This document shows, piece after piece, positions 3,932 through 52,084 of a stretch of 64,000 nucleotides of DNA. The DNA lies in the NCBI GenBank assembly GCA_026396015.1, contig JAPLXP010000002.1, forward strand, positions 5,502 to 69,501, in the 5' to 3' direction. A model generated the notes under the pieces. The model searched no databases and was not told where the DNA came from. It saw only the letters and a program-made list of their open reading frames with translations. This stretch comes from Candidatus Nomurabacteria bacterium. GTDB taxonomy: Bacteria; Patescibacteriota; Minisyncoccia; Phycocordibacterales; UBA9973. A program made the translations under genes and the position numbers. Position 1 is the stretch's first letter, and each line of letters starts with the position of its first letter.

Positions 3932-5476
3932 TTATTGTTTGATCAGCAAGACAAATTCTTCACCATTTGATATTCCAGAAGTCACATCTACTAGACCACC
4001 ATCACCCTCTAGTCCAGTTGTCACAGGAACTTCCTTATATGTTTTCTTTTTTGTGTCAGTCACGATGCGGATAATCTTGCCTGTATCTTTTGTGATCAAT
4101 GCACGAGAAGGCACGACGATCGCACCAGCTTTTTCGGCAATCAATATAGTCATATTTGCAGTCATACCAGGGCGCAATCCAGGAACCTGCTCAATTGTTG
4201 ATTTTATTTTATAATTTACAACACCAGATACAACAGTAGAAGAGGGATCGACTTCTGTGATAACACCAGTAAAGACCTTGTCTACACCAAATGCATCAAA
4301 ATTTACAGACACAGTTGCACCCAGTTTAACATTGGCAATATTTGCTTCATTTATATTTGCTTCTAGATACATATTCTTTATATCTTGCAAAATCATGACT
4401 TCTTTTTGAGGTACAGCCAATTCTCCAATTTTAATATCAAGAGATGTGATAGTACCATCTGCAGGTGCACGCAATATTGTATTTTCATACACGGCACTCG
4501 CCTGCTCGAACTGACCCTGAGCCTGGAGAATATCTGCCTTTGCTAGATCAATGTCTGCAGGGCGAGCCTGAGACTTCTTGAGGGCCAACTCTGCAGTCCT
4601 CTGATCTATAACTGCAGAAGCAGTAGCCAATGCAGCAGACTGAGTTTTTAGTGCACTCTGATAAGCATTGTAGTTTGTAAGATAATTTGATGCCTTTTTA
4701 TTTGGAATACTTACAGTCCAGTCATTTATAGTCACAGAGCCCGTAGCTGGCAACGCAATATACAATCCTGAATTACCGATTTGTTGAGGACTAGATGTAT
4801 TCAAAGTACCAGACCCAGAAACCAATCCTGATGTACTAAAGTAAAGACCATTACCAGTCTGATACACAGATATCTTGATATCACCTTCTTTACCACCAGA
4901 ATAATTACCAGAGATTACTAGAGGTGTATAATTTTGAGTATTAGAAGATGGAACAGCTTCTGGATATGAATTCAATAAATTATTATAAGCATTTTGAACC
5001 AGAGTATCTTGTGTTAGTTTTATATTTTGAAGATCGCGGTTCGCATTGTCTAATGCAATTGTTGAAATAATTATTTCTTCATTTGATGCGCCGGATAATA
5101 TTTTGTCATATTTAGCTTTTGCTGCAGCTACAGCACCACGAGCAGAAGTCAAAGATGCCCCGACTGTACCCTGATCAAGAGTAGCGAGTATTTGCCCTTT
5201 TCGCACTACGTCCCCCACCTTTACTCGAACAGAAGTCACAATACCACTACCATTGAAAGATAATTTTAAATCAGTATTCGAAGTCACTTGCCCTGTGGCC
5301 AGTACGGTCTGCTTTAGATCTACTGTCTTTGCAAAATCTGTGGTTGTATTTTTGGCTGCATCATTCATATGCATTAGCTTGTACCCTCCCCAAATAACCA
5401 CGATTAATCCGAGTGGAATTAGAATTCTTTTTCTTAGAGTAAATTCTTTAATTTTTTGTATAAATGTTTTTTCCAT
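3932..5476 (-). CDS. HlyD/MacA-family periplasmic adaptor (membrane fusion protein) with a large Ser/Thr/Asn/Gly-rich insertion
   Basis: N-terminal TM anchor, coiled-coil and lipoyl/beta-barrel-like segments (VRKGQILATLD ... ILRAPADGTITSLDIKIGE); first gene of a four-gene efflux operon. Confidence 0.75.
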   Translation of the reverse strand: MEKTFIQKIKEFTLRKRILIPLGLIVVIWGGYKLMHMNDAAKNTTTDFAKTVDLKQTVLATGQVTSNTDLKLSFNGSGIVTSVRVKVGDVVRKGQILATLDQGTVGASLTSARGAVAAAKAKYDKILSGASNEEIIISTIALDNANRDLQNIKLTQDTLVQNAYNNLLNSYPEAVPSSNTQNYTPLVISGNYSGGKEGDIKISVYQTGNGLYFSTSGLVSGSGTLNTSSPQQIGNSGLYIALPATGSVTINDWTVSIPNKKASNYLTNYNAYQSALKTQSAALATASAVIDQRTAELALKKSQARPADIDLAKADILQAQGQFEQASAVYENTILRAPADGTITSLDIKIGELAVPQKEVMILQDIKNMYLEANINEANIANVKLGATVSVNFDAFGVDKVFTGVITEVDPSSTVVSGVVNYKIKSTIEQVPGLRPGMTANMTILIAEKAGAIVVPSRALITKDTGKIIRIVTDTKKKTYKEVPVTTGLEGDGGLVDVTSGISNGEEFVLLIKQ

Positions 5477-5863: not shown

Positions 5864-5931
5864 ATAGGGTTAAATTAAAATGCTACTATAAGCATATAGT
5901 AGCATTTTGGGGACATTTTTTAAAGCTAAAT

Positions 5932-43238: not shown

Positions 43239-43656
43239 TTAATCTACAAAAATTATTTTATTTATAAATGCAGGGATTATTTTAGCATGACCGATAAAAA
43301 TATTTGAGGGCAGGCTGTCAAACGGAAAAAATTTCCATTCATAGCATTTCTCAGGTTCTACTAGTGTCGGCTCACCCACTACGTTTGATGCTAAAAAATT
43401 CAGATGAATATAATGTACATTTTCCATTGGATCATTCACAACATTTGAGAATTCTAGGTCAGCGACTAGGCCAGTCTCCTCAAATAGTTCCCTTTTGGCC
43501 CCCGAGATAGCAGACTCACCAAATTCAAGATGGCCACCAGGCAGACCCCAGTCTCCAGTCTCCATCGCCTGCAGTGTTGCGTCGTTGCCCGAGCAATAAC
43601 ATTTTGTCTTTTACAACAATCACATTCACCCCTACCTTTGGCCTTTGTTTATCCAT
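43239..43656 (-). pseudogene. NUDIX hydrolase gene disrupted by a +7 frameshift near codon 33
   Basis: Frame 1 from the ATG at 43656 reads MDKQRPKVGVNVIVVKDKMLLLGQRRNTAGDGDW and then stops. The Nudix box (GGHLEFGESAISGAKRELFEETGL) continues in the +1 frame; removing one copy of the tandem repeat restores a 139-aa protein. Confidence 0.8.
43551..43564. repeat. 7-bp perfect tandem duplication GTCTCCA-GTCTCCA (minus strand TGGAGAC x2) causing the NUDIX frameshift
   Basis: Read directly from the sequence. Confidence 0.9.
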
Positions 43657-43703
43657 ATATAAATTATATCACGTAGATAAAAAAAATATGATATTATAAA
43701 TGT

Positions 43704-44132
43704 ATGGAAAAATCACTATTCATGATCAAACCAGAAGGAATGAATCACAAGGAAGAAATTATGTCTTTCATCGAAAAGAATGGCCTAAAAATTACAAAGT
43801 GGAGAACTATGATACTAGATGAGGATCAGCTTAAGAAAATTTATCACGATACAGATGGGTATCTTTGGGATAAGACAAGGGAGCATTTTCTGGGTAAGGA
43901 GGTACTAGCTGCTGAAGTAGAAGATCCTGAAGCCATAGAAAAATTAAAGACTATCTGTGGTTCAAAGACCGACCCAGTGATGTGTGAAGCCAATTCTATT
44001 AGAAAATATTTTAAAGATATTACAGAAAGAGATGTATCCAAATATCACAAAAATATAATTCATAGAGCTGTGGACGAAAAAGAAGTTGAAGACCAGACAC
44101 TCATTTTCTTCCCTCCTGGAAGAGATATATAA
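43704..44132 (+). CDS. divergent nucleoside-diphosphate-kinase-like protein
   Basis: MIKPEG (compare NDK MIKPDG) and NIIHRA (compare the NDK active-site NIIHGSD); otherwise poorly conserved. Confidence 0.5.
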   Translation: MEKSLFMIKPEGMNHKEEIMSFIEKNGLKITKWRTMILDEDQLKKIYHDTDGYLWDKTREHFLGKEVLAAEVEDPEAIEKLKTICGSKTDPVMCEANSIRKYFKDITERDVSKYHKNIIHRAVDEKEVEDQTLIFFPPGRDI

Positions 44133-44134
44133 TA

Positions 44135-44161
44135 AAAAAGCCTCCGCAACGGAGGCTTTTA
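44135..44161. terminator. bidirectional terminator between the ndk-like and CDPS genes
   Basis: GCCTCCG-CAAC-GGAGGC hairpin flanked by A-runs and T-runs. Confidence 0.6.
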
Positions 44162-44164
44162 AAT

Positions 44165-44821
44165 TTAAATTGCTGTAATAAATCCAAAACCGCGACTGAA
44201 TTTAAAATCATAAAAATCGCTCAAGATATATCTGATGATGCAAATATCCCTGTGATACACATAAGCCATTTTTTCTTTTTCAAAAATACGATCTGCATGA
44301 GATATAAAAGCCAATTCTTTCAATAAGAATTGAATACCTATTTCTACTGCTTCCCCACTCGGAGCCAATACCCCATTAGACAACAGAACTTCGATAGTTG
44401 TTGTCCTCACTGCATTCATAAAATTCTCATCTGATTGATATGCATTCCTTAAATCAAATAGTGCCTCTGTATAATAAATATTGGAATTGAAATTCTTCCA
44501 ACGCAACACCCTAACAGAAGTGGCGACATCAAGAGATTCAATAATCTGATTGCATTTGTTTTCTAAAGCATTGGATTTCTTTTTCGATTTCCTTTCTGCT
44601 TCTTTTTCTGTGTACCCTAGTGCCATCATCGTATGGACTGCTGGCTCGTCGGGTATCATAATATAAACAGAATTCGACCTCTTTGAGGCCCAAGATATTA
44701 GCCTGATTAAATTCTCATCTTTAAAGTAGCTGTTGTTGATACTTACACCGATAATGAGTGCTGTGTCCCTATTGGCTAGGGCTTCTTCGTTCAGAGACGA
44801 ATCTTTGATTTGTATTTCCAT
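44165..44821 (-). CDS. tRNA-dependent cyclodipeptide synthase (CDPS), NYH subfamily
   Basis: ALIIGVSINNSYF (compare AlbC ALIGISAGNSYF and YvmC VLVGISPFNSRF) with conserved Ser and Asn. YTEKEAERKSKK segment parallels YvmC. LLKELAF (the catalytic-Glu region Y..AE.P.F). VYHRD (Tyr-His of the NYH type). Length 218 aa, monocistronic. Confidence 0.8.
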   Translation of the reverse strand: MEIQIKDSSLNEEALANRDTALIIGVSINNSYFKDENLIRLISWASKRSNSVYIMIPDEPAVHTMMALGYTEKEAERKSKKKSNALENKCNQIIESLDVATSVRVLRWKNFNSNIYYTEALFDLRNAYQSDENFMNAVRTTTIEVLLSNGVLAPSGEAVEIGIQFLLKELAFISHADRIFEKEKMAYVYHRDICIIRYILSDFYDFKFSRGFGFITAI

Positions 44822-44854
44822 ATTTTTGTATTTAGTTTTTGAAAGATGTTTTAA

Positions 44855-44882
44855 CTATTTGAAACCGTGCGGTTTCAAATAG
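44855..44882. promoter_or_regulatory. palindrome P1, CTATTTGAAACCGTGCGGTTTCAAATAG, in the divergent CDPS/wHTH promoter region
   Basis: Perfect 13-bp arms around a single central G; 34 bp upstream of the CDPS start codon. Shares an 18-bp core with P2 at 45857-45888. Confidence 0.6.
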
Positions 44883-45003
44883 TTTGATTTATTGTTTTTG
44901 TTTTATTTAAAAGAATCATAATCTGCATATTTGACAATGTATATTTTATGTGGTTATTTAATATAATAGTGTCAAAAAATGACACTTGTGATATACTATA
45001 GAA

Positions 45004-45852
45004 ATGTTACTTTCACTTCATTCTGAAGAAAAAATTGAAGAGACTATTGTAGAGATATTACACAAGGGTGGGCAGACAGGCCCTACCCTACTTGAGAGTG
45101 TCAGAGTAAAGGATAATAAAATTTCAAAGGAAACTTTTTATAGAGTGATACGTAGATTATTGAAAGAAGAAGTTTTAAATAAAAATAAAAGCATCTATCA
45201 ACTCAATAGATACTGGCTACAACGAATATACCAATTCGGAAAAAAGCATATTAAAGAAGAAGTTGTCACAGACAATGACCACATCCTATCTTTCAAGGAC
45301 GGAGACAAAATCAGATACAAGTTCAAAAATCCCAATACTATGGGTATATACTGGACTCATATATACGATATGGTTTATGAAAATCATGACCCAAAGATTC
45401 CCATACTTGTATTCCACCCTCATGAATGGCTGATCTATACTCGAGTAAAATCTGAATTATTTTTCTTGAGTAAATTTAAAGATGAGAAAAAACTAGCATT
45501 ATTCTCTATCGGAGGAAATACACCCCTAGATAAAAAATTTAAAAATGATTGGAATGATGAATATATACAGATAAGTACTGGGACCAGTCATGGATTCAAA
45601 AAGACTGAATACATAAATATCTTAGGCGACTATATATTCAAGATCACAGTTAGTAAAAAATGGAGTGATGATATAGAAAAATTCTTTAACACTCACACAG
45701 AGATGGATAGTAAATCTCAGGCAGAGCTTTCAAAGCTCTGCAATAGAAATGATGAAGTACGGATGCTATTCACTAGATCAAAAAAGGAGGCAGACAAATG
45801 GCGAACAAAATATAAAAAACATTTCTATATACCAAAAGGATACACAAAATAA
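45004..45852 (+). CDS. hypothetical protein with an N-terminal winged-helix-like DNA-binding domain (candidate regulator)
   Basis: N-terminus TIVEILHKGGQTGPTLLESVRVKDNKISKETFYRVIRRLLKEEVL resembles a wHTH; remainder unknown. A TTGACA -35 box and a GTGTCA-N5-TGACAC palindrome lie just upstream. Confidence 0.5.
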   Translation: MLLSLHSEEKIEETIVEILHKGGQTGPTLLESVRVKDNKISKETFYRVIRRLLKEEVLNKNKSIYQLNRYWLQRIYQFGKKHIKEEVVTDNDHILSFKDGDKIRYKFKNPNTMGIYWTHIYDMVYENHDPKIPILVFHPHEWLIYTRVKSELFFLSKFKDEKKLALFSIGGNTPLDKKFKNDWNDEYIQISTGTSHGFKKTEYINILGDYIFKITVSKKWSDDIEKFFNTHTEMDSKSQAELSKLCNRNDEVRMLFTRSKKEADKWRTKYKKHFYIPKGYTK

Positions 45853-45856
45853 AAAA

Positions 45857-45888
45857 TTACATCTAAAACCGTACGGTTTTAGATGTAA
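45857..45888. terminator. palindrome P2, ACATCTAAAACCGTACGGTTTTAGATGT, acting as a bidirectional terminator; sister of P1
   Basis: Flanked by an A-run upstream and a T-run downstream, between convergent genes. Core TAAAACCGTACGGTTTTA versus TGAAACCGTGCGGTTTCA in P1. Confidence 0.65.
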
Positions 45889-45892
45889 TTTT

Positions 45893-46795
45893 TTATTTTA
45901 ATAAATTTAAAGTTCTTTCTTTTATGGATTCATACTTATCCTTTTGCTCCGAGTAGGCATAAAAGGCGAGCGAACCTAATCCTATTCGGAGTTTGTAGCA
46001 GAGTAGGCGCTCTTCGAAATTTTCTAAATTCATGTCTCTATAAGCTTGCTCTGCATTTTTATTTGGGTCATTTTTTATTGACCAAAAGGATAACCATGCG
46101 ACATCATAAATAAAATCTCCATACATAGATTCACCCCAATCTAGGATTCCGGTAATTTTTCCATTGTTCGAGACTACATTATTTGATCCATAATCCGAAT
46201 GAATAAGAAATCTCTCCTCTGGGCAGAATTCCACCAGTTCTTCTATTTTAGAATAAATTTTATCCCACACATCTTTTTCCAAAAAAGATGTGTTAAATAA
46301 TTCATCTTTATTAATATGAGTTCCTACGGCCAAAATAAAATCTTTCCAACTTTCAGACTCCCCTAGACCATCCTTGTTCCATTTCCCAAAACCATTTGAA
46401 TCGCTTATATCTATAGAATTTATTTCTCCCAAGATAGAGATCAGCTCTGGAAGAATTTTCTGATATTCCTCTTCAGGTAGAAGATTGATGGTCTGCCCTA
46501 GAGCTCTCTTGGAAATACAAACATAATGTATATCATCCAATTTGACAGTCTCTATTATTTCGGGAATTGGTAAATCTTTTTTGGTAAAATATTTTGAAGC
46601 ATATTCATCTTTATAAAAACTACGAGCACCTTTATTCACCCGAGCCACCAAATCCAGCCCTTTTGAGTTAAAAGCAAAAGCCTGTGAAGACTCCCCGCCT
46701 TTGAGAAATTCCAATTCTTTTATTTCTGGATCAAAATTTTCTCTCAAAAATGAAAGAACTAGATCCTGATCAATTTTTGTTTTTACTGTAGACAT
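45893..46795 (-). CDS. aminoglycoside phosphotransferase (APH)/choline-kinase-like small-molecule kinase
   Basis: Brenner motif HSDYGSNNV (HxDxxxxN) and ILDWGESMYGD (DWG/DxG region). Confidence 0.7.
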   Translation of the reverse strand: MSTVKTKIDQDLVLSFLRENFDPEIKELEFLKGGESSQAFAFNSKGLDLVARVNKGARSFYKDEYASKYFTKKDLPIPEIIETVKLDDIHYVCISKRALGQTINLLPEEEYQKILPELISILGEINSIDISDSNGFGKWNKDGLGESESWKDFILAVGTHINKDELFNTSFLEKDVWDKIYSKIEELVEFCPEERFLIHSDYGSNNVVSNNGKITGILDWGESMYGDFIYDVAWLSFWSIKNDPNKNAEQAYRDMNLENFEERLLCYKLRIGLGSLAFYAYSEQKDKYESIKERTLNLLK

Positions 46796-51902: not shown

Positions 51903-51974
51903 GTTATATACTATACATCTTTTTATAAAAAAATTCCCAGACGTATGCCAAGCAGTTGGAATGATTAGTCCCCT

Positions 51975-52010
51975 AATAGAAAAAACGTCTTTAAAGACGT
52001 TTTTTCTATT
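51975..52010. terminator. perfect 36-bp palindromic terminator abutting the tRNA-His 3' end
   Basis: AATAGAAAAAACGTCTTT-AA-AGACGTTTTTTCTATT. Confidence 0.65.
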
Positions 52011-52084
52011 GGGGGACTACTGGGAATCGAACCCAGATCGAAGGTTCCACAAACCTCAGTGTTAACCGTTACACCATAATCCCC
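52011..52084 (-). tRNA. tRNA-His (anticodon GTG) with an encoded G-1; no CCA encoded
   Basis: Manual fold: 8-bp acceptor including G-1:C73, D-stem GTGT/ACAC, G18G19, anticodon loop TTGTGGA, T-loop TTCGATT. Confidence 0.7.

Follow-up and report, generated by a model that had tools for sequence, protein, structure and literature searches.

We analyzed a 64 kb stretch of a Candidatus Nomurabacteria bacterium genome (contig JAPLXP010000002.1; the whole stretch is referred to here as the window), in which two similar palindromes, P1 and P2, bracket the gene for a winged-helix protein of 282 amino acids (aa). This gene is divergent from a gene for a tRNA-dependent cyclodipeptide synthase (CDPS) and convergent with an APH-family kinase gene. 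A sequence-only reading of the same DNA had proposed that the two palindromes are operators of the winged-helix protein or, alternatively, the ends of a small mobile cassette. The principal features of the locus are these:

44165-44821, minus strand: CDPS gene, 218 aa, divergent partner of the regulator
44853-44884: P1 hairpin, a perfect 15+2+15 inverted repeat of 32 nucleotides (nt), AACTATTTGAAACCG tg CGGTTTCAAATAGTT, 31 nt upstream of the CDPS start codon
44968-44986: AGTGTCA-N5-TGACACT, a conserved palindrome unique in the window, candidate operator of the 282-aa regulator
45004-45852, plus strand: gene for the 282-aa protein, with an N-terminal winged helix and a PLD-like C-terminal domain in a TrmB-like architecture
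45846-45899: P2 palindrome, perfect 27+27, 54 nt, between the convergent 282-aa and APH-family genes
45893-46795: APH-family gene, convergent with the 282-aa gene

Both palindromes lie at the places the sequence-only reading had given, and both extend further than it had described, to 32 nt for P1 and 54 nt for P2, which covers both facing stop codons (45850-45852 and 45893-45895). The 282-aa open reading frame (45004-45852), the CDPS gene and, upstream of the former, GTGTCA-N5-TGACAC (44969-44985) and TTGACA (44931-44936), all of which it had named, were also confirmed. The identity of the CDPS was established with Pfam PF16715 (1.7e-31, 110 bits, cutoff 27) and TIGR04539 (1.1e-44, 152.6 bits, cutoff 45).

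For comparison, a protein-alignment genome scan returned 16 loci that encode homologs of the regulator (L002-L017), together with one spurious match (L018), and L020 and L022-L024 came from further look-ups. Two sister lineages on five contigs, L019/L028 and L025/L026/L027, were taken from the 90%-identity cluster to which the 282-aa protein belongs, and a Logan contig, L001, provided an independent assembly of the same strain as the window. In all, 28 related loci were fetched, and the sequence scanned, window included, amounts to 347 kb. Relative to the window, the regulator gene is 89% identical in nucleotides and 96% in amino acids in L019/L028, and 87% and 95% identical, respectively, in L025/L026/L027. 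All three lineages are almost equally distant from one another; a slight signal places the window with L019.

A conserved dyad at the putative regulator promoter

In a pattern scan, L001 and ten orthologous GTDB loci each contained exactly one perfect AGTGTCA-N5-TGACACT, and in every close ortholog whose upstream sequence is readable the dyad precedes the ATG by 5-25 nt. It is perfect in the window, L002-L004, L006-L011, L014, L015, L019, L020, L022 and L025-L028. A C-to-T change at one arm position affects one arm in L012 and both arms in L013; the arms are otherwise invariant, and the spacer, which is always 5 nt long, varies in sequence. Among the three close lineages the block from TTGACA to the ATG has accumulated about 3 differences in 73 nt, and their regulator genes differ by 11-13%. 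Persistence beside orthologous regulator genes is a feature of operators, and it is displayed by AGTGTCA-N5-TGACACT and by neither P1 nor P2.

These observations bear directly on the proposal that P1 and P2 are operators through which the winged-helix protein regulates its own gene and controls the CDPS gene. Two related dyads do flank the gene, and P1 does lie in the divergent intergenic region. However, P1 is missing from all five sister contigs, in which the protein is 95-96% identical and the promoter nearly so; an unrelated hairpin takes the place of the P2 core in L025-L027; and P2 keeps its pairing while its sequence changes. A search of related genomes for the motif, which the sequence-only reading had called for, found no AAACCG..CGGTTT elsewhere in the 347 kb, the dyad occurring in none of the 16 more distant homolog loci (L002-L017), nor in L020 or L022-L024, and the motif being absent from every orthologous locus. 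With a different dyad conserved in all close orthologs, the comparative data are strongly opposed to the proposal, and we consider it very improbable. By this comparison, the winged-helix protein appears to bind at neither P1 nor P2. The broader notion of autoregulation through a palindromic operator survives, relocated from P1 and P2 to AGTGTCA-N5-TGACACT, which is likely to be the operator of the 282-aa regulator.

The position of the dyad was considered in relation to three promoter-like elements:

44931-44936, plus strand: TTGACA (-35-like), 30-32 nt upstream of the dyad in all CDPS-bearing loci and also in L010 and L022
44989-44997, plus strand: TGaTATACT, putative extended -10-like element, 6 nt before the ATG
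44915-44920, minus strand: TATGAT, candidate -10 of the CDPS promoter (TATACA-17-TATGAT), at a place where a TAnnnT block is conserved

On the regulator side, the promoter-like arrangement GTGTCA-17-TATACT carries a TG, and TATACT or TATAAT is found at the equivalent place in most loci, with the ATG 6-8 nt further on. We infer that the regulator mRNA may be leaderless or nearly so, in which case the dyad would lie between the -35 and -10 positions. Its center would then be near -27 of the leaderless-mRNA promoter or, if an upstream promoter were used, at about +1 to +20. At either position, autorepression is predicted.

More distant members of the family carry dyads of their own. A paralog in L007 is preceded by a different dyad, ACAGTAAAC-N5-GTTTACTGT, followed by TGGTATACT and, 6 nt on, the ATG (4373-4450, minus strand), and the distant homologs in L016 (5935-5958) and L017 (5971-5985) likewise have their own dyads at the equivalent promoter position. 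Because distant family members carry different dyads at the same promoter position, the pattern suggests that operators evolved together with their regulators.

On the CDPS side, a second 7-N5-7 dyad, TGTGAAA-aatga-TTTCACA, occurs 14-17 nt from the CDPS start in L020 (7891-7909) and L007 (about 5891-5906), and L012-L014 have TTGTTGGT-N9-ACCAACAA at the equivalent place. These dyads could be CDPS-side operators or chance occurrences in A/T-rich DNA.

Structure and history of P2 and P1

Every sequence feature of the bidirectional terminator that had been proposed to follow the winged-helix gene is present, and on both strands. P2 forms 20 pairs with T-tails in an A-tract/stem/T-tract build with a short G+C core, and its two strands have RNA folding free energies of -28.5 and -29.3 kcal/mol (z -10.6 and -9.2). 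Intrinsic terminators are characterized by a stem-loop followed by a U-tract and by a site at a stop codon; P2 has both, with a U-tract on either strand. The A-tract/stem/T-tract build is common to most of the window's 20 perfect hairpins with a stem of at least 9. From these features, P2 is predicted to be a bidirectional rho-independent (intrinsic) terminator of the regulator and APH-family kinase genes.

Relatives indicate what has been maintained at this position. In L019/L028 the sequence reads CTTACATTTGAAACCGTACGGT, after which the contig ends, and in L025-L027 a different terminator, AAAAAACCTTACAGG-tctgg-CCTGTAAGGTTTTTT, occupies the place; apart from the A/T tracts, this terminator shares with P2 just the TTACA/TGTAA outer stem, so that the outer stem and flanks of P2 are kept. 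The left arm of P2 in the window reads TCTA where P1 and L019/L028 have TTTG, the right arm is complementary, and all 27 base pairs (bp) are still perfectly formed. Because both arms changed at two positions with pairing retained, selection would seem to act on the pairing of P2 rather than on its sequence, a signature of structural constraint and not of a protein recognition sequence.

Three Logan contigs, L001 (at 6401), L019 and L028, stop at the center of P2. Assemblers typically break at a long perfect palindrome, and these contig ends mark no biological boundary. Another near-perfect 54-nt palindrome, at 51966-52019 (TAGTCCCCTAATAGAAAAAACGTCTTTAAAGACGTTTTTTCTATTGGGGGACTA), is the longest inverted repeat of the window.

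We then compared P1 and P2 with each other. The 18-nt cores given by the sequence-only reading share 15 of their 18 positions. When as many as two mismatches are allowed, AAACCGTRCGGTTT has two sites in 64 kb, P1 and P2, where 0.41 are expected; 1 of 100 shuffles equalled this count, and no further site was found in the 347 kb. Searches of the window with the P1 block and P2 by blastn-short gave T-rich low-complexity matches only, and an Rfam scan of 43500-46500 (E<=1) returned only sub-threshold generic hairpin and terminator matches. Judged from the window alone, the similarity is not compelling. The sister lineage L019/L028 settles the question: the P1 arm ATTTGAAACCGT matches the arm of the L019/L028 P2, CATTTGAAACCGT, at 12 of 12 positions, for which the chance at this base composition is about 1e-7, and if one symmetric single-base indel is allowed the match reaches into the AC...GT of the outer stem. 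Because of this 12/12 match, P1 and P2 are homologous, and the earlier suspicion that they resemble each other beyond chance is borne out.

P1 belongs to a block that is specific to the lineage of the window:

44847-44853, plus strand: TGTTTTA, left one of two 7-nt direct-repeat copies flanking the P1 block
44854-44905: lineage-specific block of about 52 nt, made up of P1, its T-rich tail and the right-hand TGTTTTA, absent from all relatives
44899-44905, plus strand: right copy of TGTTTTA, bracketing the P1 block

Where the window has this block, the junction in relatives shows one GTTT(T)A. The block is missing by a clean gap of 51-53 nt in all five sister contigs (L019, L028, L025, L026 and L027), P1 was not found in more distant relatives either, and the spacer between the CDPS and regulator genes measures 182 nt in the window as against 108-141 nt in the twelve other loci measured. 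Since the five sister contigs lack the block and the lineages are nearly equidistant, the most parsimonious history would be a single insertion in the lineage of the window. P2 looks to be the original and P1 the copy, because the outer stem of P2, part of which is present in P1, also occurs in the otherwise unrelated L025 terminator.

Two other origins of P1 were considered and rejected. P1 is not an assembly artifact: it differs from the window's own P2 at several positions and is also present in L001, a contig of the same strain from a second assembler. Derivation by rearrangement of the native TTTGAA..TTCAAA dyad of L025 would require two insertions instead of one, and is further opposed by the clean alignment of both block flanks to L019 and L025.

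The variable distribution of these sequences raises the possibility that a unit of about 24-30 nt (ATTTGAAACCGTRCGGTTTCAAAT) is a mobile palindrome, similar to repetitive extragenic palindromic (REP) elements or miniature inverted-repeat transposable elements (MITEs), which entered the loop of an older terminator to give P2 and later the CDPS leader to give P1. Consistent with this, the P2 core occurs in the window and L019/L028 and not in L025-L027, which have the outer TTACA/TGTAA stem only; P1 is confined to the window and is framed by a 7-nt direct repeat; and hairpin cores recur in this DNA at a rate far above chance. Among the 20 perfect hairpins there are three pairs with a common 6-nt loop-proximal arm, P1/P2 being one of them, where about 0.07 pairs are expected. 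This excess suggests that the terminator cores of this genome are not independent of one another and hints that they are copied around or are under strong constraint. The other two pairs, at 35601-35630/55128-55168 and 48499-48540/56685-56717, have the arms CACCCA and CCCTCA.

Set against this origin is the scarcity of copies: there are only two, 1 kb apart, in the roughly 69 kb of the source genome covered by the copy search and in the 347 kb overall, and about 5 kb of added flank of this genome (L029) contained no P1/P2 motif. TYTRAAACCGTRCGGTTTYARA had 0 matches in JGI metagenomes and 0 in IMG/VR, a result of little weight because the carrier lineages come from NCBI and Logan data, and no RAYT or transposase was seen, although no search was aimed at transposases. 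The insertion polymorphism of the P1 block is clear, but the TGTTTTA repeat that flanks it is T-rich, could be due to chance, and fits microhomology equally well. We consider a mobile palindrome of this kind quite unlikely.

Whether P1 has a function is a separate question. The two strands of P1 have folding free energies of -17.5 and -17.6 kcal/mol. Its plus strand has a terminator-like score and a T-rich but interrupted tail, the CDPS strand has no T-tract, and P1 lacks the stop-codon feature of intrinsic terminators, being placed between two divergent start codons. If TATGAT is used as the -10 of the CDPS promoter, P1 would be inside the CDPS 5' leader. Because it lies downstream of this conserved minus-strand -10-like block, P1 is probably transcribed within the leader as a hairpin of -17.6 kcal/mol with no U-tract behind it. 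One further element is relevant here:

44136-44160: predicted terminator common to NDK and CDPS, which converge here, -16.8 kcal/mol, unrelated in sequence to P1 and P2

P1 might be functional in this strain, either as a leader hairpin that stabilizes the CDPS mRNA or modulates its translation, or as a plus-strand terminator that keeps antisense read-through away from the regulator promoter. The hairpin is stable on both strands, the T-rich tail and score of the plus strand are those of a terminator, and cotranscription with CDPS is probable. Nonetheless, P1 is absent from all relatives and is hence not required by the CDPS and regulator genes as a unit, its T-tail is interrupted, and there is little for a plus-strand terminator to do because NDK has its own at 44136-44160. 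A functional role is in our view unlikely. As relatives manage without it, P1 is most likely neutral, or at most mildly modulatory through a stable hairpin in the CDPS leader.

The regulator and its CDPS partner

The 282-aa protein was classified by predicted structure. An AlphaFold2 model built from a 26-sequence alignment had a pLDDT of 86.6, and the top Foldseek matches in the PDB were TrmBL2 (5bpi; E 3.4e-7, probability 1.0) and TrmB (3qph; E 3.9e-4), with low TM-scores of 0.29-0.36, so that the domain arrangement may differ from that of TrmB. In the same comparison the N-terminal domain matched winged helices of the PadR, Fur, MarR and ArsR types, among them many winged helix-turn-helix repressors, and the C-terminal domain matched the PLD folds of Zucchini and Nuc. 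The combination that defines the TrmB fold, a winged helix-turn-helix with a PLD-like C-terminal domain, is thus present in the model.

Sequence methods did not reach TrmB. In Pfam the protein had no family match above threshold and no match to TrmB (PF01978), and among ten distant relatives TrmB gave one sub-threshold match, at 17.5 bits against a cutoff of 25.6. NCBIfam contained no TrmB match, a PDB profile search gave no match, and hhalign against a neighboring TrmB protein aligned 49 N-terminal columns only. For this reason we describe the protein as TrmB-like in its modeled architecture, and not as a proven member of the TrmB family.

The family to which it belongs comprises 1,567 clusters at 50% identity (E<=1e-3), nearly all of about 280 aa. 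The listed homologs that carry a taxon name are all from Patescibacteria or Paceibacterota, and, one partial sequence excepted, none of the listed homologs has a Pfam domain on record. A tblastn search of the window found no paralog of the 282-aa gene. An HPHEWLI motif and other invariant or nearly invariant charged and aromatic residues (H119, H138, H140, E141, W142, R147, E151, D176, Y203 and D209) are grouped in the PLD-like C-terminal domain, where they may form a ligand pocket or the remnant of an active site.

The regulator gene is adjacent to and divergent from a CDPS gene in 8 of 14 closer GTDB loci, in L020 and in the L025-L027 lineage, and the contig end of L019 carries a CDPS N-terminus. 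Across the paired loci (L002, L003, L004, L006, L007, L012-L014, L020 and L025-L027), the regulator is 46-96% and the CDPS 24-83% identical to its counterpart in the window; beyond the closest lineages these ranges become 46-65% and 24-50%, and no other flanking gene is conserved. Because the pairing persists although the CDPS diverges and no other neighbor is conserved, CDPS and regulator constitute a conserved two-gene module that is inherited together across lineages.

L025 and L026 share the order PIF1-CDPS-regulator-APH-Maf. In the window, NUDIX and NDK genes (43239-44132) lie between PIF1 and CDPS; they are absent from L025 and L026, in which PIF1 directly follows CDPS (L025 2027-2078). 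At loci without CDPS (L008 4220-5914 and 6824-8575; L022 8849-10627) the regulator is flanked by uncharacterized proteins of about 560-600 aa, and treble-clef zinc-finger motifs were found in two of the three flanking proteins scanned.

Gene order also speaks to the proposal of a small mobile cassette that carries the regulator and has P1 and P2 as its terminal inverted repeats. That similar sequences occur on both sides of one gene, and that a 7-nt direct repeat adjoins P1, would be expected of such a cassette. Yet the gene occupies the same syntenic slot, PIF1-CDPS-gene-APH-Maf, in relatives that lack both P1 and the P2 core; the direct repeat flanks just P1 and not the P1-gene-P2 segment; and the conserved unit is the CDPS-regulator pair, which P1 splits. 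No P1-gene-P2 unit was found at a non-homologous site in the 28 related loci. The comparison of synteny therefore argues against the cassette, to which we assign almost no weight.

Taken together, the explanation we favor, at a rough probability of 0.72, is that P2 is a terminator, that P1 is a young copy of it, and that the operator of the TrmB-like regulator is the conserved dyad. P2 would terminate both convergent genes, those of the 282-aa regulator and the APH-family kinase. A strain-specific insertion of about 52 nt, consisting of a 30-nt copy of the P2 stem and a T-rich tail and bracketed by the 7-nt direct repeat, would have landed between the start codon of the CDPS gene and the promoter region that the divergent genes share. 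The regulator is predicted to bind AGTGTCA-N5-TGACACT at 44968-44986, and binding there would repress the regulator's own gene, whose predicted core promoter the dyad overlaps.

Several points weigh against this explanation. The one-sided change in the L012 dyad keeps a wobble pair and the change in L013 is two-sided, so that a role for the dyad as an RNA hairpin is conceivable. P2 of L019/L028 was read from its left arm, since both contigs end at the center of the palindrome. Several relatives have weak, unrelated dyads near the CDPS start, the region where P1 sits, and P1 may have a lineage-specific regulatory role. The copy search for the P1/P2 unit covered about 69 kb of this genome. Finally, the TrmB relationship is drawn from the predicted fold, with no sequence match that passes threshold.

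A more far-reaching pair of proposals is possible but on balance doubtful. The 282-aa protein might sense the cyclodipeptide made by its partner CDPS and control both genes from AGTGTCA-N5-TGACACT, which would make the pair a self-contained diketopiperazine signaling module, widespread in ultra-small Patescibacteria. Separately, the P1/P2 unit might give a first indication that REP-like mobile palindromes exist in genomes of the candidate phyla radiation.

P1 and P2 are ordinary features, and the module of TrmB-like regulator and CDPS is a modest new observation. The locus offers a caution, in that paired dyads around a regulator gene resemble operators until close strains reveal a terminator and its young copy. 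For a large unannotated Patescibacteria family, which has no Pfam model and about 1,500 clusters at 50% identity, it also supplies new descriptors: a candidate operator defined with precision, a conserved CDPS partnership and a predicted fold like that of TrmB. These provide a testable way into gene regulation, and possibly diketopiperazine signaling, in organisms not yet grown alone.

Three of the components have well-known counterparts. P2 resembles the bidirectional intrinsic terminators of convergent genes in having a long stem between an A-tract and a T-tract right after two facing stop codons, in its very favorable folding energy on both strands, and in the retention of pairing as the sequence changes. 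It differs from them in an unusually long, perfect stem (27 bp) that is A/T-rich with a short G+C core. The P1/P2 unit resembles REP elements, bacterial interspersed mosaic elements (BIMEs) and MITE-like palindromic repeats in occupying more than one intergenic site, in varying in presence between close strains, and in the short direct repeat at the P1 insertion; unlike them, it has two known copies, 1 kb apart, and is far smaller than typical MITEs. The CDPS belongs to the same candidate phyla radiation as RAAC4_OD1_1, a biochemically characterized Parcubacteria CDPS that makes cyclo(His-Pro) and cyclo(His-Glu) (PMC5816076, PMC7613923). The word 'regulator' appears in neither of these two papers.

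The regulator itself invites comparison with the TrmB family of the Thermococcales (TrmB, TrmBL1 and TrmBL2). TrmB proteins bind palindromic promoter motifs. The 282-aa protein shares with them a predicted winged helix, long helix and PLD-like C-terminal domain, and a dyad-symmetric site that overlaps the promoter. In contrast to the TrmB family, the family described here is bacterial (Patescibacteria) and without sequence-level membership, and the partner of its regulator in the window is a CDPS gene rather than a gene of sugar metabolism.

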